Source of the DNA: a virus
Taxonomy: Duplodnaviria; Heunggongvirae; Uroviricota; Caudoviricetes
Reading direction: 5' to 3' (one strand)
Length of the DNA: 32,403 nucleotides
Virus record (IMG/VR): IMGVR_UViG_2675903336_000004
The position numbers and the translations under genes were made by a program. The notes under the pieces were generated by a model. The model worked only from the letters and a program-made list of their open reading frames with translations, had not been told where the DNA came from and ran no database searches. The first letter of the stretch is position 1. The number at the start of each line of letters is the position of its first letter. This document shows positions 948-25,263 of this stretch, piece by piece.

Positions 948-1118
948 GAGGTTGCCCTGTATTCAGTGTCGCTGATTTGTATTGTCTGAAGTTGTTTTTA
1001 CGTTAAGTTGATGCAGATCAATTAATACGATACCTGCGTCATAATTGATTATTTGACGTGGTTTGATGGCGTAGATGCACGTTGTGACATGTAGATGATA
1101 ATTATTATCATTTTGCGG

Positions 1119-1313
1119 GTCCTTTCCGGCGATCCGACAGGTTACGGGGCGGAAGGCGCGCGGGTTTTCGCTATTTATGACAATTTTCCGGTTTAAGGCG
1201 TTTCCGTTCTTCTTCGCCGTAACCTAATGTTTTTATTTAAAACACCCCCTGAAAAGAAAGGAAACGACAGGTGCTGAAAACGGGCTTTTTGGCCTCTGTC
1301 GTTTCCTTTCTCT
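1119..1313 (+). other. cos: prophage cos packaging site (cosQ-like segment, cosN 1147-1158, cosB with R3, IHF site, R2, R1)
   Basis: Sequence gatccgacaggttacg followed by a 12-nt cohesive-end position, then cgcgggttttcgctatttatga. R-site-like repeats CGTTTCC(G/T)TTCT occur at about 1196-1216 and 1297-1313, with an inverted copy at about 1255-1270 and an AT-rich IHF-like site at about 1226-1245. All lie directly upstream of nu1, as in lambda. Confidence 0.85.
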
Positions 1314-1335
1314 GTTTTTGTCCGTGGAATGAACA

Positions 1336-1855: not shown

Positions 1856-1881
<26 letters not shown>
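1336..1881 (+). CDS. nu1: terminase small subunit Nu1
   Basis: 181-aa ORF beginning MEVNKKQLADIFGASIRTIQNWQEQGMPVL, essentially identical to lambda gpNu1 as recalled. Follows cosB and overlaps the start of A. Confidence 0.97.
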
Positions 1882-4901
<3,020 letters not shown>

Positions 4902-4978
4902 AACCCTTGCTGCGTCTGGAATGTCGTTTTCCATGCTTTTGATGACCGTTCATCACCCTTCCAGTTTTTCGCGGTTTT

Positions 4979-5031
4979 GTGTATTGCAATGTGTATTGCA
5001 AATTGGCGATCGGGATGGGTGTGTATTGCAA
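4979..5031 (+). repeat. integrase arm-type direct repeats GTGTATTGCAA x3 (attL arm, upstream of int)
   Basis: Exact 11-mers at 4979-4989, 4991-5001 and 5021-5031. Two more copies in the same orientation sit at 15645-15667, just inside attR. Confidence 0.7.
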
Positions 5032-5049
5032 ATCTCTTGAGGGCTTTTA

Positions 5050-6291
5050 ATGGCTATTGAAAACAAACTCAGTGACAAACTGTTAAAGAGTCTTGTCGGA
5101 AAACGGCAGGACAAACAAAAAACAATAGCGGATGGGCGCGGGTTGTCTGTGCGTGTAAGCATGGTTGGGGGGATCAGCTTTGTTTTTTACTATCGTCTTG
5201 GTGGCAGGGAATCCCCTCCGGTATGGCTTACACTTGGTCGCTATCCTGACATGTCTCTTGCAACGGCCAGGCGCATGCGTGATCAGTGCCGTGAATGGCT
5301 GGCTGAAAATCTGGACCCCCGCAGGCAAATAAAACTTGCTGCCGAAAAAACTATGCAACCAGTGACCGTAAGGGATGCGCTGTTTTACTGGTACGACAAT
5401 CACGCCACAACAGCCAGAAAAGAGCATGAATATTTAATAAAACGATTTGAAAAGCATATCTTCCCCTATATCGGTGATATGGCTATAGAACAGTGCAAAT
5501 TACACACATGGCTTACCGTCTTTGACAGGATCAAAAAAAATGCGCCTGTTATGTCTGGTGCAATTTTTCTTGATATCAAACAGGCGTTGCGTTTTTGTCG
5601 CGTCAGGCAATACATCGCGTGCGATCCCTTTGGAGATATTAACGTAAGTTATGTCGGGCGCTCATCCGGTATAAGGGATCGCGTTCTTAATATCAATGAA
5701 ACCGCTGATGTATGGTCTTATGCTTACGGTAATAATTTGCTAACTCTGTCATCAATATATAACCGAAGAATAATGGTTATCTGCCTGGTGTTTGGTTGCC
5801 GACAGCAGGAGGCGAGGCTATCCACCTGGGACGAATGGGATTTAAAAAACTGGGTATGGACAGTCCCAAAAGAGCACAGCAAAAACAAGGAGGCTATAGT
5901 AAGGCCTGTTCCTGACGGAATAAAACAATGGATCGTTAATCTTTACGCAGAAACAAAAAATCGCGGTTATGTTGTCGGTTGTGCTTTGCAAAGGGCGACA
6001 ATAACAGGGGCTGCAAACAGAATATGCAGGCGTCTTGGTCATGATACTAATGGCTTGTGGTGCATACATGATTTCAGGCGCACATTTTCCACTACGCTTA
6101 ATGATATGGGGGCGGATCCTTATATTGTCGAACTTCTTTTAGGTCATAAAGTGAAAGGGGTTGCTGGTGTTTACAATAAAAGCAGGCATATAAAGAAAAA
6201 ACTTGAGGTGCTTAATATGTGGGTTAATTACCTTAATACGATAGCAGGATTTAACAACAACGTTATCGAGCTTAATAAAGAGGTGGTGTGA
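5050..6291 (+). CDS. int: tyrosine-type site-specific integrase (P4-like family)
   Basis: 413-aa ORF with the C-terminal catalytic signature HDFRRTFSTTLNDMGADPYIVELLLGH...VYNKS (His-x-x-Arg and Tyr). Located immediately inside attL, preceded by the arm repeats. Confidence 0.9.
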   Translation: MAIENKLSDKLLKSLVGKRQDKQKTIADGRGLSVRVSMVGGISFVFYYRLGGRESPPVWLTLGRYPDMSLATARRMRDQCREWLAENLDPRRQIKLAAEKTMQPVTVRDALFYWYDNHATTARKEHEYLIKRFEKHIFPYIGDMAIEQCKLHTWLTVFDRIKKNAPVMSGAIFLDIKQALRFCRVRQYIACDPFGDINVSYVGRSSGIRDRVLNINETADVWSYAYGNNLLTLSSIYNRRIMVICLVFGCRQQEARLSTWDEWDLKNWVWTVPKEHSKNKEAIVRPVPDGIKQWIVNLYAETKNRGYVVGCALQRATITGAANRICRRLGHDTNGLWCIHDFRRTFSTTLNDMGADPYIVELLLGHKVKGVAGVYNKSRHIKKKLEVLNMWVNYLNTIAGFNNNVIELNKEVV

Positions 6292-6292
6292 T

Positions 6293-6550
6293 ATGACAAT
6301 TTATTCTCTTGTTGATGAAAACGATTTGCGCACAATGAAGGACATTGATCGGTTCATTCGTGAAAAAGAGTGCATAGCACTTACCACGCTGGCAAACTCA
6401 ACACGCTGGAAAATGGAGCAGGCAGGTAAATTCCCGCGACGTATCAAGATCGGTGAACGTGCTGCAGGGTATCGACTTTCAGAGGTTCAGGCATGGATCC
6501 GTGGTGAGTGGCATCCTGGATGGAAACCTGGAAAAACAAAACAGCAATAA
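6293..6550 (+). CDS. alpA: AlpA-family transcriptional regulator / putative excisionase
   Basis: 85-aa ORF directly downstream of int. The segment IREKECIALTTLANSTRWKMEQAGKFPRRIKIGERAAGYRLSEVQAWI fits the AlpA/Xis-type HTH pattern. Confidence 0.8.
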   Translation: MTIYSLVDENDLRTMKDIDRFIREKECIALTTLANSTRWKMEQAGKFPRRIKIGERAAGYRLSEVQAWIRGEWHPGWKPGKTKQQ

Positions 6551-6563
6551 CCAGTAAATAATG

Positions 6564-6586
6564 CCCCTCATCACGAGGGGTTTTTT
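6564..6586 (+). terminator. rho-independent terminator after alpA
   Basis: Hairpin CCCCTC-atcac-GAGGGG followed by TTTTTT. Confidence 0.75.
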
Positions 6587-6606
6587 GTCTATAAGGTAAA
6601 AACGCG

Positions 6607-7185
6607 ATGAATAAAAATATTGCCGTGACGGGCAAGGGGTACGCTCGTCCAGTGAAAAAATTCTGCGATATTCGTGATCTCGTCGTTCTGCGCTTTGATA
6701 GTGTGAACGTTCGTGTGGTGTATCTGAACGGCGATCCGTGGTTTGTTGCAAAAGATGTTTGTGCTGCGCTGGAACTAACCAATTCGCGTACGGCGTTGCA
6801 GATGCTTGATGATGATGAAAAGGGAGTAAATTTAACTTACACCCCAGGAGGAAATCAGAATATGAGAATTATCTCTGAGTCAGGTTTCTACAAACTAATA
6901 GCCCGCAGCCGCAAAGCAACGACGCCTGGCACATTTGCTCATCGTTTCAGTAACTGGGTATTCAGAAATGTGATACCAGGTATCAGAAAAACGGGGACTT
7001 ATGGTATCCCGTGGGGTGCATTACAGGATTTTTCCCGCCGTAAAGAGCAATATCAAATAAGTGCCAGCGAGAAGGGGAGGGAGCTACAGGCATGTAAGCG
7101 CAAAAAGCGTGAGCTGGAGGAAGAAGAAAAAACGCTGATACGTGAATATCAGCCTGAGTTTTACTTTGGTAACCGCATTCAGTGA
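6607..7185 (+). CDS. Bro-N domain protein (antirepressor-like)
   Basis: 192-aa ORF. The segment DPWFVAKDVCAALELTNSRTALQMLDDDEKG...ISESGFYKLIARSRKATTPGTFAHRFSNWVFRNVIPGIRKTGTY matches the Bro-N/KilA-N type domain, with a charged coiled-coil-like C-terminus. Confidence 0.65.
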   Translation: MNKNIAVTGKGYARPVKKFCDIRDLVVLRFDSVNVRVVYLNGDPWFVAKDVCAALELTNSRTALQMLDDDEKGVNLTYTPGGNQNMRIISESGFYKLIARSRKATTPGTFAHRFSNWVFRNVIPGIRKTGTYGIPWGALQDFSRRKEQYQISASEKGRELQACKRKKRELEEEEKTLIREYQPEFYFGNRIQ

Positions 7186-7215
7186 CAAAACAAAGGCGAC
7201 CGCAAAAGGGTCGCC
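7186..7215 (-). terminator. putative rho-independent terminator of the leftward operon (possibly bidirectional)
   Basis: Hairpin GGCGACC-gcaaaag-GGTCGCC at 7195-7215, preceded on the + strand by aaaacaaa, which reads as a T-run after the stem on the - strand. Confidence 0.5.
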
Positions 7216-7281
7216 AGTGGGAACAAGGGAAAACAAAAGCATCACCAACAATGCCACATTTGCGGCTGGTGGGCAATGTGA

Positions 7282-7461
7282 TCAGTCAGATTTGGTTCGT
7301 TCCAAGGTTTGCAACGAGAGCTTTTTCCTGTGCTCTTTAAGGAATTTCTCAAGAGCAAACGAACAAGGTGCGAATCTTTCTGATTCATGTTCATGCGCTA
7401 TATTTTTGCGTCGTCTCTTACGAGTTGGTGATGGTGTTTTGGTTGATTCTGTGTCGCTCAT
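7282..7461 (-). CDS. small basic hypothetical protein (59 aa; below the ORF-track threshold)
   Basis: Manual translation of the reverse strand gives MSDTESTKTPSPTRKRRRKNIAHEHESERFAPCSFALEKFLKEHRKKLSLQTLERTKSD. It has an AGGA-containing RBS about 7 nt upstream and lies between orf101 and the terminator on the same strand. Confidence 0.35.
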   Translation of the reverse strand: MSDTESTKTPSPTRKRRRKNIAHEHESERFAPCSFALEKFLKEHRKKLSLQTLERTKSD

Positions 7462-7518
7462 GGTGCTGTCCTGTAAAGCAATGCGCCTGCGTTCCTCAAA
7501 CTATGGCGCTGATATTGG

Positions 7519-7824
7519 CTATTCATGCTCTTTGACCTTGCGTCGCTGGAGTTCTTCACGCGCGACGGTGACGAGTTGCCCGATCTCCTCGGCTGCTTTG
7601 ATGCCGATTTGTTCGACCTTAGCCAGGGCATCCAGTGACGACACAAGGGGATTTTCTCCGCTGCCTTCTGCTTGGCGGCGGGCTATTTCTCCGCGCATGG
7701 CGGTTACGATAAATCCGGCATTGCTTTCACCGTCCAGCTTAACGGATTCCATCCCTTGCATAACATCTAGTGGGACTCTGACAGTTGTCAGTTGTGATTT
7801 TGCGTTTTTGTTAGCCGTTGCCAT
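7519..7824 (-). CDS. putative transcriptional regulator (101 aa), divergent from the island early operon
   Basis: Complete ORF with an AGGAG RBS 8 nt upstream. It is transcribed away from the operator-containing intergenic region, and its position mirrors satellite/phage repressor genes. Fold assignment is tentative. Confidence 0.45.
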   Translation of the reverse strand: MATANKNAKSQLTTVRVPLDVMQGMESVKLDGESNAGFIVTAMRGEIARRQAEGSGENPLVSSLDALAKVEQIGIKAAEEIGQLVTVAREELQRRKVKEHE

Positions 7825-7885
7825 TTCTGAAACTCCTAATCATCGGTGTGTTTCAGTATACACAAAAAAAGAAATACAAAAAGCC

Positions 7886-7923
7886 TTGACGTGTGTTTCA
7901 TGCGCTCATAACATGAAACACAC
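7886..7923 (+). promoter_or_regulatory. rightward promoter (TTGACG, 17 bp, TAACAT) overlapped by a 12-bp perfect inverted-repeat operator
   Basis: GTGTGTTTCATG (7891-7902), 9-bp spacer, CATGAAACACAC (7912-7923). A third half-site GTGTGTTTCA is at 7846-7855. The -35 TTGACG is at 7886-7891 and the -10 TAACAT at 7909-7914. Confidence 0.6.
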
Positions 7924-8014
7924 CGAAAGGATTGTTGAAATACAAAGAGCAACGCCCCGCAGTGCTGGGAACACATACGGGGCGTCTAACCAACAACGTA
8001 AACTAGGAGCCGTT

Positions 8015-8212
8015 ATGGTTGCTGTAAATCATATACCACACCTTGTACACACACAAACGGCCTTTGTGTGGCGTTTTCTGGCACTGAGTGCCGGAGAATC
8101 TCAAATCATCCACGTAACCGCCTGGACGGAACGCGAAGCGCGTAGCCGTTGCCCGTCCGGTTGTGTTGCTGTATTCGCTGCAAAAATCCGCCAGGGAGTG
8201 AGTCATGCTTAA
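8015..8212 (+). CDS. small protein (65 aa), possibly Icd-like cell-division-inhibitor family
   Basis: ATG at 8015 with an AGGAG RBS 5 nt upstream; it shares frame and stop with the tail of the spurious long ORF 7142..8212. First gene after the operator-controlled promoter. Family assignment is from memory of a VWRFLAL-type motif and is tentative. Confidence 0.4.
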   Translation: MVAVNHIPHLVHTQTAFVWRFLALSAGESQIIHVTAWTEREARSRCPSGCVAVFAAKIRQGVSHA

Positions 8213-8390
8213 AACCTTCCGTGTATTTGCCCGAGCTGTTAACCCAATAGGCCACACAATTGGTATCGCTCAGAATGTGAAGGCTGTTAATGTTCAGACG
8301 GCTATTGCTGCGGTGAGAAGCGAATCATCAGAATATGGCTTATCACAAGTCATTATTTCAGCAGTGTATGAATTAAAAGAGGTGCATTAA
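8205..8390 (+). CDS. hypothetical protein (61 aa)
   Basis: Complete ORF whose start overlaps the stop of the preceding gene, indicating a translationally coupled operon. Confidence 0.4.
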   Translation: MLKTFRVFARAVNPIGHTIGIAQNVKAVNVQTAIAAVRSESSEYGLSQVIISAVYELKEVH

Positions 8391-8581
8391 TGCAGGAAAT
8401 TACATTACACGAAGCCGCTGAACGTGCGCACCAGACAGAAATTATTTGCCGCCTTCTTGAGGTATACCCGAACAAAATTACAGATGCTGATATATCCGCA
8501 CTGGCGAGCCTACTGGCGCGTCTTTCGGGAAGTGTCGCTAGTTTTTTGATTGAGGAAGAAAGTAAGCTGGTGGGGGATTAA
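8390..8581 (+). CDS. hypothetical protein (63 aa)
   Basis: Complete ORF with a TAATG stop/start overlap with the previous ORF. Confidence 0.4.
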   Translation: MQEITLHEAAERAHQTEIICRLLEVYPNKITDADISALASLLARLSGSVASFLIEEESKLVGD

Positions 8582-8803
8582 ATGAATACAGAACGGGAAG
8601 TCTTTTTTAAATTGTTAGCATGTGCAGAAAGTTCATTAACTTTAAATAATTCAGCAAAAGCAATATTAAATATGTGGCTTGATTGCATAAATGACAATGA
8701 AGATGCAAATATTGCTTATGGCCTGTTGTCACTTATTGATGAATCAGCAGAAAAACTCAATGACGCAATAAATAGTGCCCTGCTATCAAATAAGTCGAGT
8801 TAA
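8582..8803 (+). CDS. hypothetical protein (73 aa, AT-rich)
   Basis: Complete ORF abutting the previous stop. Codon composition is AT-rich. Confidence 0.4.
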   Translation: MNTEREVFFKLLACAESSLTLNNSAKAILNMWLDCINDNEDANIAYGLLSLIDESAEKLNDAINSALLSNKSS

Positions 8804-8820
8804 GTCGAGGAATAAATAAT

Positions 8821-9120
8821 ATGGAAATGAAAAATTCTGGCTTTATTGCCAGCGGCCCCGCTCGACCTGAATTTATGAACGGCGATATTTACCGCGATAA
8901 ATACGGCGGCACGGTAACGATTAAAGGCGTGGCAGAACGGCGCATCACTTACCGCCGTGAGGGGTATAGCTATGACTGCGTGATGCCTGTTTATCAGTTC
9001 CGGCGTGATTTTTCCCTGGTATATGCCGCACCCCGCAGTAAGCCCATCAGCAGGGAAAAAGCGTGGGGAAATATCCAGAAAATGAAAACCATGATTAACG
9101 GATTCAGAGGTAAAAAATGA
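8821..9120 (+). CDS. hypothetical protein (99 aa)
   Basis: Complete ORF with an ATGA overlap with the pri-rep start. Confidence 0.45.
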   Translation: MEMKNSGFIASGPARPEFMNGDIYRDKYGGTVTIKGVAERRITYRREGYSYDCVMPVYQFRRDFSLVYAAPRSKPISREKAWGNIQKMKTMINGFRGKK

Positions 9121-10871
9121 AACTGGCACCGAACGTAAAACAGCAGTCACGCGGCATAAAACACAAAGGAACAGAAGTCATTATTTTTGCGGGTAGTGAT
9201 GCCTGGGCACACGCGAAACAATGGCAGGAACATGATGCGCGTATGGCCGGAGATAATGAGCCTCCTGTGTGGCTTGGGGAGCAGCAGCTATCCGAACTGG
9301 ATAATCTGCAAATTGTGCCGGAAGGCCGAAAATCAGCACGCATATACAGGGCCGGATATCTTGCGCCTGTAATGATAAAGACGATTGGTCAGAAGCTGGC
9401 GGCAGCAGGCGTACAGGATGCAAATTTTTATCCTGAGGGTATGCACGGCCAGGAGGTGCAGAACTGGCGCGAATATCTGGCCCGTGAACGCCAGAATCTT
9501 TCTGATGGTCTGGTCATTGAGCTTCCGGTAAAGCAAAAGGCGCAACTTTCGCAGATGGCGGACAGTGAGCGCGCGCAGTTGCTTGCCGATCGCTTTGATG
9601 GCGTTTGCGTACATCCTGAAAGTGAAATCGTTCACGTATGGCGCGGCGGGGTATGGTGTCCGGTCAGCACAATGGAACTTAGCCGCGAAATGGTGGCGAT
9701 CTATTCAGAGCACAGGGCCACTTTCAGCAAGCGCGTAATCAATAACGCCGTGGAAGCGTTAAAAGTTATTGCCGAACCAATGGGCGAGCCGTCTGGCGAT
9801 TTGCTGCCGTTCGCCAATGGTGCGCTTGACCTGAAAACGGGGGAATTTTCCCCGCACACGCCGGAGAACTGGATCACCACGCACAACGGCATTGAGTACA
9901 CGCCACCAGCACCAGGGGAGAACATCCGCGATAACGCGCCAAACTTTCATAAATGGCTTGAGCACGCAGCCGGAAAAGACCCGCGCAAGATGATGCGTAT
10001 ATGTGCCGCGCTGTACATGATTATGGCGAACCGGTACGACTGGCAGATGTTTATTGAGGCCACCGGAGACGGCGGGAGCGGTAAAAGTACATTCACACAC
10101 ATAGCCAGCCTTCTGGCAGGGAAACAGAACACGGTAAGCGCTGAAATGACATCGCTTGATGATGCTGGTGGACGTGCGCAGGTTGTCGGGAGTCGTCTTA
10201 TCGTCCTGGCTGACCAGCCGAAATATACAGGCGAAGGAACGGGCATCAAGAAAATCACAGGCGGCGACCCCGTGGAAATTAACCCGAAATATGAAAAGCG
10301 TTTCACGGCGGTAATCAGGGCGGTGGTGCTGGCGACCAACAACAACCCGATGATATTCACCGAACGGGCCGGAGGTGTGGCACGTCGTCGCGTGATTTTC
10401 CGTTTCGACAATATCGTCAGTGAGGCCGAAAAAGACAGGGAGCTACCGGAAAAGATTGCGGCTGAAATCCCCGTTATTATCCGCCGATTGCTGGCGAACT
10501 TTACCGACCCTGAGAAGGCACGGGCTTTACTACTGGAACAGCGTGACGGTGATGAAGCACTGGCAATAAAGCAACAGACGGATCCGGTTATTGAGTTTTG
10601 CCAGTTCCTGAATTTTCTGGAGGAAGCGCGCGGCCTGATGATGGGTGGCGGTGGTGATTCAGTGAAGTACACGACCAGGAACAGCCTTTACCGCGTCTAT
10701 CTGGCGTTTATGGCATACGCGGGCAGGAGCAAACCGCTAAACGTGGCTGAGTTCAGCAAGGCCATGAAGCCAGCGGCGAAAGTTTACGGGCATGAATATA
10801 TTACGCGAAAAGTTAAGGGAGTAACGCAGACCAACGCAATTACAACAGACGATTGCGACGCGTTTTTATAA
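9117..10871 (+). CDS. primase/helicase replication initiator (pri-rep; P4-alpha/D5-like NTPase)
   Basis: 584-aa ORF with Walker A GDGGSGKST and a Walker B-like RLIVLADQP. Size, domain order and position (upstream of an iteron array) are as in PICI pri-rep genes. Confidence 0.85.
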   Translation: MKLAPNVKQQSRGIKHKGTEVIIFAGSDAWAHAKQWQEHDARMAGDNEPPVWLGEQQLSELDNLQIVPEGRKSARIYRAGYLAPVMIKTIGQKLAAAGVQDANFYPEGMHGQEVQNWREYLARERQNLSDGLVIELPVKQKAQLSQMADSERAQLLADRFDGVCVHPESEIVHVWRGGVWCPVSTMELSREMVAIYSEHRATFSKRVINNAVEALKVIAEPMGEPSGDLLPFANGALDLKTGEFSPHTPENWITTHNGIEYTPPAPGENIRDNAPNFHKWLEHAAGKDPRKMMRICAALYMIMANRYDWQMFIEATGDGGSGKSTFTHIASLLAGKQNTVSAEMTSLDDAGGRAQVVGSRLIVLADQPKYTGEGTGIKKITGGDPVEINPKYEKRFTAVIRAVVLATNNNPMIFTERAGGVARRRVIFRFDNIVSEAEKDRELPEKIAAEIPVIIRRLLANFTDPEKARALLLEQRDGDEALAIKQQTDPVIEFCQFLNFLEEARGLMMGGGGDSVKYTTRNSLYRVYLAFMAYAGRSKPLNVAEFSKAMKPAAKVYGHEYITRKVKGVTQTNAITTDDCDAFL

Positions 10872-10886
10872 TTTTTTGTAAAAGCC

Positions 10887-11105
10887 ATCTACCCCATCTA
10901 CCTGAACAAAATAAACGCATATTATTCAACATGATAAGTGGGTATAGGGCTAGGTAGAAGGCTAATAAAAGCTCTCTACCTCTTCTACCTGATTTTATCA
11001 GTTTCAGGTAGCAGGGTAGACGGCAGGTAGAGGAGTCAAAAAGCTATCTACCCGCTGAAAGCCGCGCCATTACTGACATGATGAGCATTCGGGTAGATGG
11101 GTAGA
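10887..11105. repeat. iteron array / putative replication origin (GGTAGA/TCTACC motifs, about 12 copies in both orientations)
   Basis: ATCTACC at 10887 and 10896; GGTAGA at 10953; TCTACC at 10975 and 10984; GGTAG(A) at 11007, 11015 and 11026; ATCTACC at 11046; GGTAGA at 11092 and 11100. Lies immediately 3' of pri-rep. Confidence 0.65.
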
Positions 11106-11218
11106 GGGGGGGAGGCACAACTAAAAACTTTTTAAACGAGGGGGGGTGAAAATAAATGCGCATACATAAAAATCACTTAACAAACATGCCAGCCGAAAAC
11201 ATGAATCAGGGGCGACAA

Positions 11219-11470
11219 ATGACCAAAATTCGCAGAGACAGAACACAGGCAAAATATAAAGCGTTAGACATGACAGAGCTTTCCTTAAAGGTGGCAATCA
11301 AAGCGATAGACCACCACACACGGGCAGGATACGCGAAGGAACATCCCGACCTGATAAGCGCATTCATGACCACAGCAGCGGCAAACTTTGCCACGCTGAC
11401 AGAACGGGAGATTGCCGAAGCGGAACAGGTGACAACCATCAATGTTAAAACCGGAGAGCAGACAGCATGA
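11219..11470 (+). CDS. hypothetical protein (83 aa from the ATG at 11219; track ORF begins at 11156)
   Basis: ATG at 11219 has an AGGGG RBS 6 nt upstream. Stop overlaps the ssb start (ATGA). Confidence 0.45.
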   Translation: MTKIRRDRTQAKYKALDMTELSLKVAIKAIDHHTRAGYAKEHPDLISAFMTTAAANFATLTEREIAEAEQVTTINVKTGEQTA

Positions 11471-11889
11471 CAGCACAGATAGCGGCTTACGGGCGGCTGG
11501 TGGCTGACCCGCAGTTAAAGACCACCAGCAAAGGGACACAAATGGCGATGGCGAGTATGGCGGTTCCCCTGCCGTGCAGCCAGGCAGATGACGGAACGGC
11601 GACGATGTGGTTATCCGTCCTGGCGTTTGGCAGACAGGCCGACGCACTGGCAAAACACCACAAAGGCGAACTGGTGAGCGTGGCGGGTAACATGCAGGTA
11701 AGCCAGTGGACAGGCCAGAACGGCGAAACGCGGCGGGGCTGGCAGGTTATCGCAGACAGCGTAATCAGTGCGCGAACGGCGCGACCGGGCGGCAAAAAAG
11801 GCCAGCAGGGGCAGGCCACTGACGCACTGAACAGGGCAAAACAACAGTCGGGGAATGATGATCCGTACGGCGATAATATACCGTTTTAA
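11467..11889 (+). CDS. ssb: single-stranded DNA-binding protein
   Basis: 140-aa ORF with an OB-fold-like core (MWLSVLAFGRQAD...VSQWTGQNGETRRGWQVIADSV), a Gly/Gln-rich linker and an acidic tail ending DDPYGDNIPF, like the SSB C-terminal DDDIPF tail. Confidence 0.75.
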   Translation: MTAQIAAYGRLVADPQLKTTSKGTQMAMASMAVPLPCSQADDGTATMWLSVLAFGRQADALAKHHKGELVSVAGNMQVSQWTGQNGETRRGWQVIADSVISARTARPGGKKGQQGQATDALNRAKQQSGNDDPYGDNIPF

Positions 11890-12100
11890 ATTCTGCAAAC
11901 AAAAAGATGCCGGAAAAAAATAGATTTTCCGGCATGCTACATAAATCCCGACCAAAGGAAGTAAATACATTAACACGAATTATCAGCACTGAAGTTGTTA
12001 CGGCATATTTTATACAACATTGCACTTGGTTGCATGTATTCGCATAGCAGACATCGGTAATAGAATATATTCACAATTATTTGTAATGAATGTAAAGAGG

Positions 12101-13147
12101 ATGAGTATGGTTGATTTATATTCGCCTACACAGCTTGTGCAGGTGGCTAATGCTGAAGATGTGCAAAAAAAATTAAATGCGTTGTTTACCAGTTTGTTTT
12201 TCACTCGCTCGGTAATGTTTGAATCGAGAGACATTATTCTTGATACGATCGACGATCCAAATATCCCGATCGCGGCGTTTTGCTCTCCTATGGTGGGCAG
12301 TAAAGTTTCACGAGATGAGGGATACGAATCAAAAACAATTCGTCCAGGTTATATGAAGCCGAAAAGCAGCATTGATCCAAATAAGTTAGCTGTGCGCCCT
12401 GCTGGTGTGTCACCTGAGCAATACAATGCTTTTGGGGCGCGTAATATTAAAGTTAAACAGGCGATTGTAAATCAGGCTAAAGCTATTCGTGCACGTATTG
12501 AATGGCTTGCTGTTCAGGCAATCACAACGGGGAAAAATATCATTGAGGGCGATGGTATTGAACGTTATGAGCTGGACTGGAATATAAAACCACAAAATAT
12601 CATCACTCAGTCTGGCGGTACTGAGTGGTCAGGTAAGGATAAAGAAACTTTTGATCCAAATGATGATATTGAGAGCTACGCAGAATTTAGTGAGGGCGTC
12701 ACTAATATCATCATTATGGGTGGTAATGTATGGAAGAAATACCGTTCATTCAGAGCGATAAAAGAGGCTTTGGATACCCGTCGTGGTTCTAATTCCGAAC
12801 TGGAAACGGCCCTTAAAGACCTTGGTGATTCGGTGAGTTTTAAAGGGTATATGGGCGATGTTGCGATTGTTGTTTACAGCGGGCGTTATACCGACGAGGA
12901 CGGAACAGAAAAACATTTCCTTGATCCTGATTTGATGGTGCTTGGCAATACGGCTCTTCAGGGGATTGTCGCCTATGGCGGTATTCAGGATCCGGAGCTA
13001 ATCCGAATGGGGCTGACTAAAGCCGAACTTGCACCGAAAAACTATATTGTGCCTGGTGATCCGGCTATTGAATATGTGCAGACACATTCAGCACCACAGC
13101 CAATACCGGCCCGCATCAATCGTTTTGTTACCGTTCGCATTGGCTAA
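12101..13147 (+). CDS. lambda gpE-like major capsid protein paralog (island-encoded)
   Basis: Alignable by eye along its length to the helper gpE in this window (18230..19255), e.g. ITQSGGTEWSGKDKETFDPNDDIESYA vs ITQSGVTEWSKRDKSTYDPTDDIEAYA, and TRRGSNSELETALKDLG...YMGDVAIVVYSG vs TRRGSHSELETAVKDLG...MYGDVAIVVYSG. Clearly diverged. An alternative start at 12107 has better RBS spacing. Confidence 0.8.
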   Translation: MSMVDLYSPTQLVQVANAEDVQKKLNALFTSLFFTRSVMFESRDIILDTIDDPNIPIAAFCSPMVGSKVSRDEGYESKTIRPGYMKPKSSIDPNKLAVRPAGVSPEQYNAFGARNIKVKQAIVNQAKAIRARIEWLAVQAITTGKNIIEGDGIERYELDWNIKPQNIITQSGGTEWSGKDKETFDPNDDIESYAEFSEGVTNIIIMGGNVWKKYRSFRAIKEALDTRRGSNSELETALKDLGDSVSFKGYMGDVAIVVYSGRYTDEDGTEKHFLDPDLMVLGNTALQGIVAYGGIQDPELIRMGLTKAELAPKNYIVPGDPAIEYVQTHSAPQPIPARINRFVTVRIG

Positions 13148-13156
13148 GGGGGAGCA

Positions 13157-13498
13157 ATGGCTACTCATTACACTGAACTCATGGCTGGCACTGAAGCACT
13201 GGTGACTACGCTGGGGATATTTTCAGCTAATAAAGGGGTAATTCCTGCATTTACGCCACTGATGCAGGAAGATGCAACAGGTGCACTGGTGGTATGGGAT
13301 GGTTCGAGCGTAGGTAAAGCGGTTTATGTTTCCGCTGTACAAATCGACACAGCGAAAAAAACACAGGCACAGGTTTATAAGACAGGTGTTTTAAATGTTG
13401 ATGCTCTGAACTGGCCTGAGTCTGTAAAAGAACTGTCGGCAAAGGTTGCCGCGTTTGTTGGCTCAGGTATTTCTGTTCAGCCGCTGGCTCGTGTGTAA
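13157..13498 (+). CDS. lambda gpD-like head decoration protein paralog (island-encoded)
   Basis: 113-aa ORF with a strong RBS (AAGGGGGAG). Shares the motifs TPLM, WDG, YKxG and WPE with the helper gpD (17842..18174) at equivalent spacing. Gene order is E-like then D-like, the reverse of lambda. Confidence 0.7.
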   Translation: MATHYTELMAGTEALVTTLGIFSANKGVIPAFTPLMQEDATGALVVWDGSSVGKAVYVSAVQIDTAKKTQAQVYKTGVLNVDALNWPESVKELSAKVAAFVGSGISVQPLARV

Positions 13499-13509
13499 AG
13501 GGGGATACA

Positions 13510-13893
13510 ATGCAGAATCATTACAATGACCTTAAGCCAATTGCCGAAATGATGTATCCGGATCCAGCAGTAGAGGAATTAAAGGCTATTGCTGACAAAA
13601 TGCGTTTAAGTGAACGCCTTGTTGATATGAATCAGGTGATGGAACTTACTACCCTTAGCCGTCGCACATTGCTAAACCTTGAGGCTCGCGGAGAGTTCCC
13701 CGAACGCGTACAGGTTACGGAAGGGCGTAAGGCCTGGTATTTAAGTGAAGTGATCGACTGGATAAACAATATTCCTCGATCTTCTGAATATTGCCGCGTA
13801 CCTGTCCCAAAAAAGCCAGATGCGGCGCTATGCCTCAAGATTGAGCGTGTACGTCGCAATGCACGGGATGGTCGCTATAAGTTGATTGGTTGA
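13510..13893 (+). CDS. AlpA-like HTH DNA-binding protein (second AlpA paralog), directly upstream of the island cos
   Basis: 127-aa ORF with RBS AGGGGG. The central segment MELTTLSRRTLLNLEARGEFPERVQVTEGRKAWYLSEVIDWI fits the AlpA/MerR-like HTH pattern and is flanked by N- and C-terminal extensions. Confidence 0.6.
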   Translation: MQNHYNDLKPIAEMMYPDPAVEELKAIADKMRLSERLVDMNQVMELTTLSRRTLLNLEARGEFPERVQVTEGRKAWYLSEVIDWINNIPRSSEYCRVPVPKKPDAALCLKIERVRRNARDGRYKLIG

Positions 13894-13918
13894 TGAAATT
13901 AGGGCCCGTTCTGGCTGG

Positions 13919-13985
13919 CGGGTCCTTTCCGGCGATCCGGTAGGCTACGGGGCGGCGACCTCGCGGGTTTTCGCTATTTATGAGC
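13919..13985 (+). other. cos: island cos site (cosQ-like segment plus canonical lambda cosN GGGCGGCGACCT at 13950-13961)
   Basis: gggtcctttccggcgatccg...ctacgGGGCGGCGACCTcgcgggttttcgctatttatga matches the lambda cos core as recalled. Downstream sequence, where cosB would be, differs from the prophage cosB. Confidence 0.8.
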
Positions 13986-14094
13986 CTTTTTCGGGTGCTG
14001 GTGGTGGTTTTGTTGTTCGCTCTATCTCTATGAATAAAAAGGAAAAGATAAAGCCAATACACCAACCTGAAACATTACTTAAGTGGGGATATTG

Positions 14095-14637
14095 ATGAAA
14101 TCGCACCTGATGAACAAAAAAAACATGGCGCAAAGCTGCCGTGTAAGTGCGACAGCGTTCGACAAGTGGGGAGTGACTCCCGTTGAACGTAAAGGCCGCG
14201 AGGCGTTTTATGATGTTGCCAGCGTAATAGACAATCGGGTTAGCAATGCAATTAACCAGATTACAGACGACAAAGGCGAGATTGATGATGATGAACTCCT
14301 ACGAGTCAGGATCAGATTGCTGACAGCACAGGCAGAGGCGCAGGAGCTTAAAAACGAGCGCGAACGCGGCGACGTTATTGATACAGCGTTTTGTATATAC
14401 GTGCTTTCAAAATTGGCGAGTCAGATTTCTTCAATCATGGACAGCCTGCCGCTTGCCATGACAAGGAAGTTTCCCGACATGAAGCCGTCTATGCTGGATG
14501 GACTGAAAAAAGAAGTTATCAGAGCCTGTAACGCATGCGCAAAACTTGACGAAAACATACCGCTGATGCTGTCCGATTATCTGATGGAAACTGCCGGAAA
14601 CGTACCGGATAAGTTGCAGCCGAATAAAGATAAGTAA
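14095..14637 (+). CDS. Nu1-like terminase small subunit (island-encoded; diverged N-terminal DNA-binding domain)
   Basis: The C-terminal two-thirds align with helper Nu1 (LTAQAEAQELKNERERGDVIDTAFCIYVLSKLASQISSIMDSLPLAMTRKFPDM vs LTRAQADAQELKNARDSAEVVETAFCTFVLSRIAGEIASILDGIPLSVQRRFPEL). The N-terminal about 60 aa are diverged. ATG at 14095 has a GTGGGG RBS; the track ORF starts at GTG 14083. Confidence 0.85.
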   Translation: MKSHLMNKKNMAQSCRVSATAFDKWGVTPVERKGREAFYDVASVIDNRVSNAINQITDDKGEIDDDELLRVRIRLLTAQAEAQELKNERERGDVIDTAFCIYVLSKLASQISSIMDSLPLAMTRKFPDMKPSMLDGLKKEVIRACNACAKLDENIPLMLSDYLMETAGNVPDKLQPNKDK

Positions 14638-14648
14638 CGTAGTACGCT

Positions 14649-14930
14649 ATGACTGAATCCGAAATACTGCGATTAATCCGCCGTGCTTGTGGAATCAGCA
14701 AGCAGCATGACGAACAGGCCACGCAGCCGGACAGCGTGACCGCAGATAATTATGTGCGTGTAGTGGCTGAGGTGATGCGCCGTGACGGTATTGAGCTTAA
14801 CGGCGTGGATATGCGCAACATACGAACAAGAGTCCTTGAGTTGCTGGCATATCGTCGCCGTTCTCAACAACGGAGGGAGAGCGCGAAAAATACTTACCAG
14901 TGGAAGAAGCCGGAACGATTGCGGCGGTAA
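14649..14930 (+). CDS. hypothetical protein (93 aa, Arg-rich C-terminus)
   Basis: Complete ORF immediately downstream of the island terS. No recognisable motif. Confidence 0.4.
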   Translation: MTESEILRLIRRACGISKQHDEQATQPDSVTADNYVRVVAEVMRRDGIELNGVDMRNIRTRVLELLAYRRRSQQRRESAKNTYQWKKPERLRR

Positions 14931-14945
14931 CTTGCTGATATTCCC

Positions 14946-15156
14946 GATAACGCAAAATTGCGCTGGCTGACTTGTTGCATTGCAAAAAGTTAAGCAGGAA
15001 GGCACGGCCTGTAAGATGGGATGCAGTAAGTAGTTCAAGGCTACCTTGTGCTGGCACGCACAGTTAAGCCGTCGGTGCTGGATATCCCCCACTGGGGGAA
15101 AAGCTGGCTACATCCCTCACATCTGAGGACTGATAACGCGACATTGCGCTGGCTGG
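14946..15156 (+). repeat. pair of 24-bp direct repeats GATAACGC(A/G)A(A/C)ATTGCGCTGGCTG, each followed by a short palindrome
   Basis: Copies at 14946-14969 and 15133-15156 match at 22 of 24 positions. Palindromes CGCAAAATTGCG and GTGCAAAATTGCAC lie within or next to them. Confidence 0.6.
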
Positions 15157-15180
15157 CAAAGTGCAAAATTGCACGATGGC

Positions 15181-15342
15181 CTAACCCATTGATTATTTCG
15201 AAAACCTGCAATGCAGGAAATCGGGGAAGTAAGCCTAAGCTATTGATTGTTTCGAAAACCCCCATTGGGGGATGTCGGGAAAGTAAGACTAACCCATTGA
15301 TTCTTCCACAATCCTCAATTTGAGGAGGCCGGAACGTCTACA
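15181..15342 (+). repeat. three tandem 54-bp repeat units, each with a different perfect hairpin (covarying stems)
   Basis: Units start at 15181, 15235 and 15289, each with CTAA(C/G)C(C/T)ATTGATT. Hairpins are CCTGCA-a-TGCAGG (15205-15217), CCCCCA-ttg-GGGG (15259-15271, stem of 4-5 bp) and CCTCAA-t-TTGAGG (15313-15325). Related hairpins lie upstream at 15086-15098 and 15115-15128. Confidence 0.7.
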
Positions 15343-15644
15343 TAGCTGCATCGCCGTAATGATGATTCAGCCCACCAGCCAAATCAGCACAGCAACGACA
15401 GAATAGCCCGACACAGAAAAACCACGAATATGGGGTTTTTGTTATGACATGGTCATGATGACCACTCATACAAAACAGGTAAAGCCCACCAGCCTGATTA
15501 AAGGTTAACCGGAAAAAAGCCAGGTATCCAATCTCGATATGGGGATCCCTATATCGACATTAACGCCCACTAAAACTGTGCATATATGCATAGAAAAAGC
15601 ATCCACCAGCTTTATGACGGATGCCGCTCATCTTATAAATAATC

Positions 15645-15667
15645 GTGTATTGCAGTGTGTATTGCGA
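15645..15667 (+). repeat. integrase arm-type repeats (GTGTATTGCAG, GTGTATTGCGA) at the attR arm
   Basis: Two copies in the same orientation as the three attL copies, about 75 bp inside the attR core. Confidence 0.65.
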
Positions 15668-15739
15668 CTCCTTTAAACGATAGGTCTGAGCATTCGTAAT
15701 GTACTGTTTTTAAATTTTATTTTTTCCTGTCTTTTCATA

Positions 15740-15747
15740 AAGGCGAT
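15740..15747. repeat. attR core (AAGGCGAT), right copy of the direct repeat
   Basis: Identical 8-mer to 4842-4849. Lambda B coding sequence resumes immediately to its right. Confidence 0.7.
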
Positions 15748-16316
15748 GTATGCCGCCACCATTGAAAGTGAGCTGGATACGCAGTCAGCGATGGATTTTA
15801 TTCTGGGCGCGAACAGTAAGGAGCAGCGGGAAAGGCTGACGGGCTGGATTGGTGAAATTGCCGCGTATTACGCCGCAGCACCGGTCCGTCTGGGAGGCGC
15901 AAAAGTGCCGCACCTGATGCCGGGGGACTCACTGAACCTGCAGACGGCTCAGGACACGGATAACGGCTACTCCGTGTTTGAGCAGTCACTGTTGCGGTAT
16001 ATCGCTGCCGGGCTGGGTGTCTCGTATGAGCAACTTTCCCGGAATTACGCCCAGATGAGCTACTCCACGGCACGGGCCAGTGCGAACGAGTCGTGGGCGT
16101 ACTTTATGGGGCGGCGAAAATTCGTCGCATCCCGTCAGGCGAGCCAGATGTTTCTGTGCTGGCTGGAAGAGGCCATCGTTCGCCGCGTGGTGACGTTACC
16201 TTCAAAAGCGCGCTTCAGCTTTCAGGAAGCCCGCAGTGCCTGGGGGAACTGCGACTGGATAGGCTCCGGTCGTATGGCCATCGATGGTCTGAAAGAAGTT
16301 CAGGAAGCGGTGATGC
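15746..16316 (+). CDS. B: portal protein B, 3' fragment (from native Met276; truncated by masked gap at 16317)
   Basis: MYAATIESELDTQSAMDFILGANSKEQRERLTGWIGEIAAYYAAAPVRLGG... matches the lambda gpB C-terminal half. The ATG at 15746 overlaps the attR core. Confidence 0.9.
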
Positions 16317-16584
16317 NNNNNNNNNNNNNNNNNNNNNNNNNNNNNNNNNNNNNNNNNNNNNNNNNNNNNNNNNNNNNNNNNNNNNNNNNNNNNNNNNNNN
16401 NNNNNNNNNNNNNNNNNNNNNNNNNNNNNNNNNNNNNNNNNNNNNNNNNNNNNNNNNNNNNNNNNNNNNNNNNNNNNNNNNNNNNNNNNNNNNNNNNNNN
16501 NNNNNNNNNNNNNNNNNNNNNNNNNNNNNNNNNNNNNNNNNNNNNNNNNNNNNNNNNNNNNNNNNNNNNNNNNNNNNNNNNNNN

Positions 16585-20071: not shown

Positions 20072-20697
20072 ATGGCCATAAAAGGTCTTGAGCAGGCCGT
20101 TGAAAACCTCAGCCGTATCAGCAAAACGGCGGTGCCCGGTGCCGCCGCAATGGCCATTAACCGCGTTGCTTCATCCGCGATATCGCAGTCTGCGTCACAG
20201 GTTGCCCGTGAGACAAAGGTACGCCGGAAACTGGTAAAGGAAAGGGNNNNNNNNNNNNNNNNNNNNNNNNNNNNNNNNNNNNNNNNNNNNNNNNNNNNNN
20301 NNNNNNNNNNNNNNNNNNNNNNNNNNNNNNNNNNNNNNNNNNNNNNNNNNNNNNNNNNNNNNNNNNNNNNNNNNNNNNNNNNNNNNNNNNNNNNNNNNNN
20401 NNNNNNNNNNNNNNNNNNNNNNNNNNNNNNNNNNNNNNNNNNNNNNNNNNNNNNNNNNNNNNNNNNNNNNNNNNNNNNNNNNNNNNNNNNNNNNNNNNNN
20501 NNNNNNNNNNNNNNNNNNNNNNNNNNNNNNNNNNNNCCGGGAAAAACCGTTACCCCATTGATGTGGTGAAAATCCCGATGGCGGTGCCGCTGACCACGGC
20601 GTTTAAACAGAATATTGAACGGATACGGCGTGAACGTCTTCCGAAAGAGCTGGGCTATGCGCTGCAGCATCAACTGAGAATGGTAATAAAGCGATGA
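20072..20697 (+). CDS. Z: tail completion protein Z (contains masked gap 20247-20536)
   Basis: N-terminus MAIKGLEQAVENLSRISKTAVPGAAAMAINRVASS... before the gap. After the gap the frame ending at TGA 20695-20697 encodes ...[49 protein letters not shown]. The gap length breaks the apparent frame. Confidence 0.85.
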
Positions 20698-22691: not shown

Positions 22692-25263
22692 ACCGGTAGG
22701 CGATCTGGTCGTTGATTTGAGTCTGGATGCGGCCAGATTTGACGAGCAGATGGCCAGAGTCAGGCGTCATTTTTCCGGTACGGAAAGTGATGCGAAAAAA
22801 ACAGCGGCAGTCGTTGAACAGTCGCTGAGCCGACAGGCGCTGGCTGCACAGAAAGCGGGGATTTCCGTCGGGCAGTATAAAGCCGCCATGCGTATGCTGC
22901 CTGCACAGTTCACCGACGTGGCCACGCAGCTTGCAGGGGGGCAGAATCCCTGGCTGATCCTGCTGCAACAGGGTGGTCAGGTTAAGGACTCCTTCGGCGG
23001 GATGATCCCCATGTTCAGGGGGCTTGCCGGCGCGATCACCCTGCCGATGGTGGGGGCCACCTCGCTGGCGGTGGCGACCGGTGCGCTGGCGTATGCCTGG
23101 TATCAGGGCAACTCAACCCTGTCCGATTTCAACAAAACGCTGGTCCTTTCCGGTAATCAGGCGGGACTGACGGCAGATCGTATGCTGGTCCTGTCCAGAG
23201 CCGGGCAGGCGGCAGGGCTGACGTTTAACCAGACCAGCGAGTCACTCAGCGCACTGGTTAAGGCGGGGGTAAGCGGTGAGGCTCAGATTGCGTCCATCAG
23301 CCAGAGTGTGGCGCGTTTCTCCTATGCATCCGGCGTGGAGGTGGACAAGGTCGCTGAAGCCTTCGGGAAGCTGACCACAGACCCGACGTCGGGGCTGACG
23401 GCGATGGCACGCCAGTTCCATAACGTGACGGCGGAGCAGATTGCGTATGTTGCTCAGTTGCAGCGTTCCGGCGATGAAGCCGGGGCATTGCAGGCGGCGA
23501 ACGAGGCCGCAACGAAAGGGTTTGATGACCAGACCCGCCGCCTGAAAGAGAACATGGGCACGCTGGAGACCTGGGCAGACAGGACTGCACGTGCATTCAA
23601 ATCCATGTGGGATGCGGTGCTGGATATTGGTCGTCCTGATACCGCGCAGGAGATGCTGATTAAGGCAGAGGCTGCGTTTAAGAAAGCAGACGACATCTGG
23701 AATCTGCGCAAGGATGATTATTTCGTTAACGATGAAGCACGGGCGCGTTACTGGGATGATCGTGAAAAAAAACGCCTGGAGCGGGATGCAGCCCAAAAGA
23801 GGGTAGATCAACAGCGTCAACAGGACAAAAATGCGCAGCAGCAGAGCGATACCGAAGCGTCACGGCTGAAATATACCGAAGAGGCGCAGAAGGCTTACGA
23901 ACGGCTGCAGACGCCGCTGGAGAAATATACCGCCCGTCAGGAAGAACTGAACAAGGCACTGAAAGACGGAAAAATCCTGCAGGCAGATTACAACACGCTG
24001 ATGGCGGCGGCGAAAAAGGATTATGAAGCGACGCTGAAAAAGCCGAAACAGTCCGGCGTGAAGGTGTATGCGGGCGATCGTCAGGAAGACAGTGCTCATG
24101 CGGCCCTGCTGACGCTTCAGGCAGAACTCCGGACGCTGGAGAAGCATGCCGGAGCGAATGAGAAAATCAGCCAGCAGCGCCGGGATTTGTGGAAGGCAGA
24201 AAGTCAGTTCGCGGTACTGGAGGAGGCGGCACAACGTCGCCAGCTGTCCGCACAGGAGAAATCCCTGCTGGCGCATAAAGACGAGACGCTGGAGTACAAA
24301 CGCCAGCTGGCTGCACTTGGTGACAAGGTTACGTATCAGGAGCACCTGAATGCGCTGGCGCAGCAGGCGGATAAATTCGCACAGCAGCAACGGGCAAAAC
24401 GGGCAGCCATTGATGCGAAAAACCGGGGGCTGACTGACCGGCAGGCAGCGCGGGAAGCCACGGAACAGCGCCTGAAGGAACAGTATGGCGATAATCCTCT
24501 GGCGCTGAATAACGTCATGTCAGAGCAGAAAAAGACCTGGGCGGCTGAAGACCAGCTTCGCGGGAGCTGGATGGCAGGCCTGAAGTCCGGCTGGAGTGAG
24601 TGGGAAGAGAGCGCCACGGACAGTATGTCACAGGTTAAAAGTGCAGCCACGCAGACCTTTGATGGTATTGCACAGAATATGGCGGCGATGCTGACCGGCA
24701 GTGAACAGAACTGGCGCAGCTTCACCCGCTCCGTGCTGTCCATGATGACAGAAATTCTGCTTAAGCAGGCAATGGTGGGGATTGTCGGGAGTATCGGCAG
24801 CGCCATTGGCGGGGCTGTTGGTGGCGGCGCATCCGCGTCAGGTGGTACAGCNNNNNNNNNNNNNNNNNNNNNNNNNNNNNNNNNNNNNNNNNNNNNNNNN
24901 NNNNNNNNNNNNNNNNNNNNNNNNNNNNNNNNNNNNNNNNNNNNNNNNNNNNNNNNNNNNNNNNNNNNNNNNNNNNNNNNNNNNNNNNNNNNNNNNNNNN
25001 NNNNNNNNNNNNNNNNNNNNNNNNNNNNNNNNNNNNNNNNNNNNNNNNNNNNNNNNNNNNNNNNNNNNNNNNNNNNNNNNNNNNNNNNNNNNNNNNNNNN
25101 NNNNNNNNNNNNNNNNNNNNNNNTGATTCAGAACGACGGTACGAATGGTCTGCCAGGTCCACAGATGATGAAGGCCGTGTATGACATGGCCCGCAAGGGT
25201 GCCCGTGATGAAATTCAGACACAGATGCGTGATGGTGGCCTGTTCTCCGGAGGTGGACGATGA
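22684..25263 (+). CDS. H: tail tape measure protein H (contains masked gap 24852-25123)
   Basis: MAEPVGDLVVDLSLDAARFDEQMARVRRHFSGTESDAKKTAAVVEQS... is a long Ala/Gln-rich coiled-coil protein matching lambda gpH. Confidence 0.93.
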   Translation: MAEPVGDLVVDLSLDAARFDEQMARVRRHFSGTESDAKKTAAVVEQSLSRQALAAQKAGISVGQYKAAMRMLPAQFTDVATQLAGGQNPWLILLQQGGQVKDSFGGMIPMFRGLAGAITLPMVGATSLAVATGALAYAWYQGNSTLSDFNKTLVLSGNQAGLTADRMLVLSRAGQAAGLTFNQTSESLSALVKAGVSGEAQIASISQSVARFSYASGVEVDKVAEAFGKLTTDPTSGLTAMARQFHNVTAEQIAYVAQLQRSGDEAGALQAANEAATKGFDDQTRRLKENMGTLETWADRTARAFKSMWDAVLDIGRPDTAQEMLIKAEAAFKKADDIWNLRKDDYFVNDEARARYWDDREKKRLERDAAQKRVDQQRQQDKNAQQQSDTEASRLKYTEEAQKAYERLQTPLEKYTARQEELNKALKDGKILQADYNTLMAAAKKDYEATLKKPKQSGVKVYAGDRQEDSAHAALLTLQAELRTLEKHAGANEKISQQRRDLWKAESQFAVLEEAAQRRQLSAQEKSLLAHKDETLEYKRQLAALGDKVTYQEHLNALAQQADKFAQQQRAKRAAIDAKNRGLTDRQAAREATEQRLKEQYGDNPLALNNVMSEQKKTWAAEDQLRGSWMAGLKSGWSEWEESATDSMSQVKSAATQTFDGIAQNMAAMLTGSEQNWRSFTRSVLSMMTEILLKQAMVGIVGSIGSAIGGAVGGGASASGGTXXXXXXXXXXXXXXXXXXXXXXXXXXXXXXXXXXXXXXXXXXXXXXXXXXXXXXXXXXXXXXXXXXXXXXXXXXXXXXXXXXXXXXXXXXXXIQNDGTNGLPGPQMMKAVYDMARKGARDEIQTQMRDGGLFSGGGR

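Follow-up and report, generated by a model that had tools for sequence, protein, structure and literature searches.

Can a single terminase serve two cos sites whose cohesive ends differ, and does the difference alter how the two elements are packaged and cyclised? The question is raised by a 32,403-nucleotide stretch of viral DNA (IMG/VR record IMGVR_UViG_2675903336_000004, hereafter the window), which is a lambda-like prophage late region with Nu1, gpA, W and then portal gene B, and in which portal gene B is interrupted by a satellite island with a cos site of its own. A first-pass annotation of the window had claimed that the helper and island cosN sequences mismatch at 5 of 12 positions and that the island version is canonical, and both claims are borne out. 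The island cosN at 13950-13961 reads GGGCGGCGACCT and is therefore canonical, as the lambda record J02459 starts with the same sequence at its left end (right end ...GGGTCCTTTCCGGTGATCCGACAGGTTACG), while the helper site is changed from lambda at bp 7, 8, 9, 10 and 12, all in the cosB-proximal right half. Our reading, which we hold with high confidence, is that the helper sequence is a natural allele of the lambda-type cosN right half, here called AAGGCG, at which cutting would be tolerated, and that its mismatch with the satellite would be harmless.

Table 1 Coordinates of the cos sites, terminase genes, portal gene fragments and island in the window.
Feature	Position	Strand	Basis and remarks
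Helper cos region	1117..1335	+	cosQ-like GGGTCCT at 1117 (-30), lambda-type cosB up to Nu1 start; alignment to joined J02459 ends
Helper cohesive end GGGCGGAAGGCG	1147-1158	+	Left half 1147-1152 canonical; right half 1153-1158 AAGGCG replacing CGACCT
Helper Nu1, small terminase subunit, 181 aa	1336..1881	+	Pfam PF07471, full length, E 2e-101
Helper gpA, large terminase subunit	1856..3820	+	Annotation of near-identical locus L001; N run 3140-3426 inside
Portal gene B, 5' fragment	4020..4854	+	attL core AAGGCGATTTATG at 4842-4854; blastn to intact PhiR46_1 portal gene
Helper-embedded PICI, ~10.9 kb	4855..15752	+	attR core AAGGCGATGTATG at 15740-15752
Island cos core, -30 to +34	13920..13983	+	cosQ-like GGGTCCT, canonical cosN 13950-13961, then unrelated cosB
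Island Nu1-family TerS, 180 aa	14095..14637	+	Pfam PF07471, E 3e-24
Portal gene B, 3' fragment	15740..16316	+	Up to next N run; blastn to PhiR46_1 portal gene

An alignment of the helper site to the joined ends of J02459 gave 18 differing positions between -60 and +134, five of which are the cohesive-end changes. The cosQ-like GGGTCCT (-30) and R3 (+50 to +65) show no difference from lambda at all, so that helper and lambda have an identical R3 but differ in the cohesive end, and Nu1 starts at +190, the same distance as in lambda. The island departs from lambda between -30 and +34 only at -17, -10, -9 and -5, and because all other positions there agree, the alignment indicates that this resemblance is homology, not chance. 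From +35 on, the island is unrelated to lambda or to the helper (106 of 166 positions differ), and the lambda-type cosB, with R3 followed by Nu1, is present in the helper and absent from the island. The sequence GGGTCCTTTCCGG starts at -30 in helper, island and lambda; in lambda, cosQ lies ~30 bp upstream of the left nick. The flanks had been described as conserved in both sites, which is true on the downstream side, where the block CGCGGGTTTTCGCTATTTATGA (+13 to +34) is identical, but not on the upstream side, where the helper has GGTTACG and the island GGCTACG, with further differences at -10 and -9. Both sites read ACG/GGGCGG....../CGCGGG (slashes bound the cohesive end), with the left half GGGCGG and the nick-flanking CG pairs present.

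The island is an integrase-bearing satellite, flanked by att sites and co-oriented within a late gene, which places it among the helper-embedded PICIs (HE-PICIs), a described class (Tommasini, Mageeney and Williams 2023, PMC10111431) for which three B (portal) target sites are reported. Its genes run in the order int, HTH, Bro-N, Icd-like, primase (of the D5/P4 type), SSB, E-like capsid, D-like decoration, AlpA-like, cos and Nu1-like TerS, and it shares with the published elements the integrase, the AlpA-type and Bro-N genes, the primase, the late zone and the co-oriented position inside a lambda-like late gene. The insertion point corresponds to nucleotides 823-835 of the PhiR46_1 portal gene, and the 13-bp core AAGGCGAT(T/G)TATG at the two island ends is identical at 12 of 13 positions; precise excision of the co-oriented island would restore portal gene B, whose 5' fragment is annotated as a partial portal protein in locus L001. 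This arrangement is common to ~52 complete E. coli genomes. The model element of PMC10111431, 11capE, has no terS and was presumed to use the helper cos machinery, whereas the window island has a full-length Nu1 homologue adjoining its cos; that paper makes no cosN sequence comparison. As portal protein cannot be made until the island excises, the helper's own cos may be used rarely.

Several further features of the composite deserve mention. The satellite has its own lambda E-like capsid and D-like decoration genes (12107-13498) beside its full-length Nu1-family TerS gene (14095-14637), but has no large terminase, portal or protease gene, and because of this gene content it suggests an element that would remodel or supplement the helper capsid and redirect the helper gpA. 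Integrase arm-type repeats TGTGTATTGCAA are found at 4978-5033 and 15656, and three 38-nt direct repeats with a 54-nt period, each with a short hairpin, lie at 15181-15326, close to the island's right end; Rfam yielded no matches in the window. Five N runs of 253-290 nt (3140-3426, 16317-16584, 20247-20536, 24852-25123 and 29731-29983) mask parts of gpA, of the portal/protease region and of the tail genes, so that the integrity of gpA is only partly visible. The run inside gpA exceeds the corresponding stretch of strain VL46, whose composite has a canonical helper end, by 39 nt, and ORF lengths across N runs are therefore unreliable.

The position of the helper changes within cosN agrees with published work on lambdoid cos sites. 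Feiss et al. (2015, PLoS One, PMC4669245) placed natural cosN variation at bp 7-12, which they described as free of selection, and reported that cosQ, the left half of cosN and the CG pairs beside the nicks are conserved. In their comparison, phiD326 and N15 (cohesive end GGGCGGCGTCCG) differ from lambda at bp 9 and 12, and Gifsy-1 at 8, 9 and 11; the Gifsy-1 cosN is taken from that paper, and the Gifsy-1 record itself begins at attP, not cos. Like these three phages, the helper has the left half GGGCGG and the nick-flanking CGs, with all differences inside bp 7-12, and like N15 it has a G at position 12, but it carries five changes where they carry two or three. Right-half changes did not measurably alter cos cleavage in that study, which used changes other than the five-base allele of the helper. 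In lambda, the two nicks that gpA makes in cosN lie 12 bp apart, and the small subunit, from its binding site R3, determines where the cosB-proximal one falls (PMC9026076, PMC4669245), which is why the cosB-proximal half is insensitive to sequence. At the helper site, two gpA (TerL) endonuclease centres would likewise nick 12 bp apart, and a small subunit at cosB (R3) would set the cosB-side nick, so that bp 7-12 could vary without loss of cutting. We infer that the helper and island sites are both cleaved, and that gpA cuts AAGGCG as efficiently as it cuts the canonical cosN.

A comparison of cosN across related prophages, proposed in the first-pass annotation, found variation restricted to the right half and AAGGCG recurring exactly in complete E. 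coli genomes. Among 131 cos sites from IMG/VR and GTDB representatives, which are mostly reachable via the downstream anchor alone, positions -3 to +5 were invariant, +6 varied once, and all other variation in the cohesive end fell at 7, 8, 9, 10 and 12; positions -29 to -19 were nearly invariant in the same sample. A second IMG/VR scan anchored on the downstream flank only returned nearly the same 120 contigs, adding two loci and a singleton G6 to A. In a complete IMG/VR scan for sites in which position 9 is not A, with alleles counted in genuine cos contexts, AAGGCG occurred 78 times, CAGGCG four times, CAGACG three times, GAGCGT twice, and CTGACG, AAGCGT and AAGGCT once each; CGACCG and AGACCT were likewise seen. 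At least seven right-half alleles thus accompany AAGGCG, and their sequences show that intermediates exist between the two common alleles. In the same scan AAGGCG was accompanied by any of three cosB types: that of lambda, a second one and that of the island. Five IMG/VR relatives of the island with the same cosB-side sequence (L152, L156, L198, L211 and L066) carry CAGACG, CTGACG or AAGGCG, not CGACCT, so that bp 7-12 vary as much in the satellite family as in the phages. A scan of GTDB representatives gave 11 matches, several of them in unrelated organisms and possibly due to contamination or chance. Exact lambda-type cos sequences were also seen in assemblies of unlikely lambda hosts (L128-L131, GTDB representatives of Raphidiopsis, Aeromicrobium, Archangium and Alicyclobacillus), where they probably reflect contamination with lambda vector or spike-in DNA.

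Could the variant nevertheless be a sequencing or assembly error, or the random decay of a defective prophage with a broken portal gene? The island does interrupt the portal gene, and the helper cohesive end is canonical in seven other sampled genomes with the same composite. One of these seven, the composite of E. coli STE15 (NZ_CP095823.1, 1052-1140), combines a canonical helper end with a G14 to T change in the otherwise invariant CG by the cosB-side nick, which may be a damaging change in a decaying helper. However, of 5,426 complete E. coli genomes, 155 contain the exact AAGGCG 37-mer, at 166 places in all, 16 of them on plasmids of ~46-47 kb; since the canonical 37-mer occupies 7,413 places in 4,101 genomes of this set, AAGGCG makes up ~2% of such sites. 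In addition to the 78 viral contigs, the allele is carried by the phage genomes PhiR46_1 (recorded host, E. coli ECOR13) and YDC107_1, both deposited as complete, and by a phage-plasmid of 46.9 kb whose portal gene is intact. Five IMG/VR contigs are identical to the window around cos, through 150 nt on the upstream and 200 nt on the downstream side, and cosQ, the left half of cosN and R3 are unchanged in the helper. Recurrence of the exact sequence excludes error or decay, to which we assign next to no probability.

The viability of PhiR46_1 is something we infer from the laboratory host named in its GenBank record; neither a description of this phage nor a paper on its plaque formation turned up under the PhiR names or in a 2025 lambdoid-phage paper. 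A literature search for the variant 12-mer found it in no phage paper of the library searched, its sole match being an unrelated plant paper. Two identical variant cos sites on one 56-kb IMG/VR contig, considered as a candidate helper/satellite pair, turned out to be a terminal duplication of one site.

Comparison with VL46 bears on how the natural allele entered this prophage. A cluster of 14 differences between the two lies in 1153-1283, with only sparse differences elsewhere. The 150 nt upstream of the window cos are 100% identical to contigs with the canonical allele, and the 200 nt downstream are 100% identical only to AAGGCG contigs, some of which have unrelated DNA upstream; these identities, in the compared region 1117-1346 of the window, therefore place a recombination joint at cosN itself, in the conserved cosQ/cosN-left block. 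In our sample AAGGCG travels with the cosB/Nu1 side, and the allele reached the prophage together with cosB/Nu1-side DNA by recombination at that block.

Such joint travel, and the sheer size of a difference comprising five changes in six adjacent bases, would also fit a variant cosN that required a co-evolved gpA and Nu1 specialised for AAGGCG, by which the canonical site of the island would be cut poorly, or the reverse. The sequences of the terminase subunits speak against this, as they do not co-vary with the cosN allele. We compared 32 full-length gpA proteins encoded beside AAGGCG with 33 encoded beside CGACCT, all with a lambda-type cosB, and no residue separates the two groups; the best column, position 185 (D/E), has a frequency difference of only 0.39, and three identical 641-aa gpA proteins occur beside both alleles. 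For Nu1 (47 versus 55 proteins), five identical proteins are shared by both alleles and no column differs by more than 0.11. AAGGCG lies next to lambda-type Nu1 and gpA proteins that also occur unchanged beside the canonical cosN, and in this it differs from the variants of N15, phiD326 and Gifsy-1; the helper Nu1 of the window is annotated as nohD/DNA-packaging protein in the near-identical locus L001. Burst-size data for the lambda and N15 terminases point the same way, showing no cosN specificity (PMC4669245). A co-evolved terminase is, in our judgement, very unlikely.

Tolerance by a single enzyme is further suggested by the packaging genes of the island. Because the Nu1-family TerS and the cosB of the island are both its own, the cosB being unrelated to that of the helper, a single helper gpA probably serves both the helper and the island cosN: the island TerS would recruit the helper's only gpA to the island cos, so that the same gpA would cut a canonical and a variant cosN. 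The island TerS shares 37% identity with the helper Nu1, with the C-terminal two thirds kept and the N-terminal DNA-binding region diverged. Its alignment to Nu1 extends through residue 181, the C-terminal part being the best conserved, and since it thus reaches the very end of Nu1, the island TerS may bind gpA directly. In combining a phage-like cosQ/cosN with an unrelated cosB, the island resembles the Rpp-type E. coli PICIs (EcCICFT073; Fillol-Salom 2019, reviewed in PMC9026076), in which the cos is likewise followed by a gene for a small DNA-binding packaging protein. Rpp has a C terminus 30-40 residues shorter than that of lambda TerS and acts as a heterodimer with the phage TerS (PMC9026076). 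On comparison with this published description of Rpp, the 180-aa island protein differs in that the C-terminal TerL-binding region is not missing.

What, then, would the two cohesive ends mean for packaging and cyclisation? The ends of helper and satellite genomes, as the first-pass annotation had pointed out, are not complementary to each other, which follows directly from the differing cosN sequences. It had left the choice between a tolerated polymorphism and an effect on packaging or cyclisation, and the evidence favours the former: the allele occurs in 155 genomes, in phages and in phage-plasmids, its changes lie within bp 7-12, and gpA and Nu1 do not co-vary with it. An effect on either process found no support. 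The prophage would give rise to genomes in which both ends are variant and mutually complementary, and the embedded satellite to genomes with lambda-type ends. Because the two ends of each genome come from its own cosN and match, no effect on cyclisation is expected, and the cosN difference from the satellite is most likely harmless. We also considered an effect of overhang stability and rejected it, as the predicted duplex stabilities of the two overhangs, -18.2 versus -17.8 kcal/mol, are only 0.4 kcal/mol apart.

There is only one setting in which the mismatch could matter: on a concatemer of unexcised composites, packaging might begin at the island cos and end at the following helper cos, giving a chimeric chromosome. 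It is here that the difference might be adaptive, with the right half of cosN serving as a compatibility barcode that blocks the cyclisation of such chimeras and the cross-annealing of helper and satellite ends. In the composite both cos sites point the same way, composites replicate before satellite excision (PMC10111431), and a 2-bp end mismatch already lowers the viable yield about fourfold (PMC4669245). In addition, a second, independent composite (L166, IMGVR_UViG_2623620496_000002) has the same combination, with a helper AAGGCG at 239 and an island CGACCT at 12504, a distance of 12,265 nt; the background of the helper cos deviates slightly there from that of the window. Yet the ends are matching and canonical in all seven of the other sampled composites, both alleles occur in phages and in satellites across many backgrounds, and a chimeric particle would be wasted whether it cyclised or not, so that there is no clear benefit to either element. 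Since composites with matched alleles are common and both kinds of element carry both alleles, we rate an adaptive role as highly improbable. If there were one, helper and satellite would stay genetically separate replicons, and selection for this would help several discrete alleles to persist in the lambdoid gene pool.

The helper sequence is thus one more natural allele of a polymorphism already known to be tolerated, met in a described type of helper-satellite composite, and it calls for no new mechanism. A practical consequence is that cos-site finders and genome-end predictors keyed to GGGCGGCGACCT overlook ~2% of the lambda-type cos sites of E. coli, chiefly those with AAGGCG, next to which at least seven further right-half alleles exist. 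One gpA probably suffices for a helper and a satellite site whose overhangs differ, and the survey provides population-scale support for the published model in which sequence reading by terminase is limited to the left half of cosN and the CG pairs that flank the nicks.
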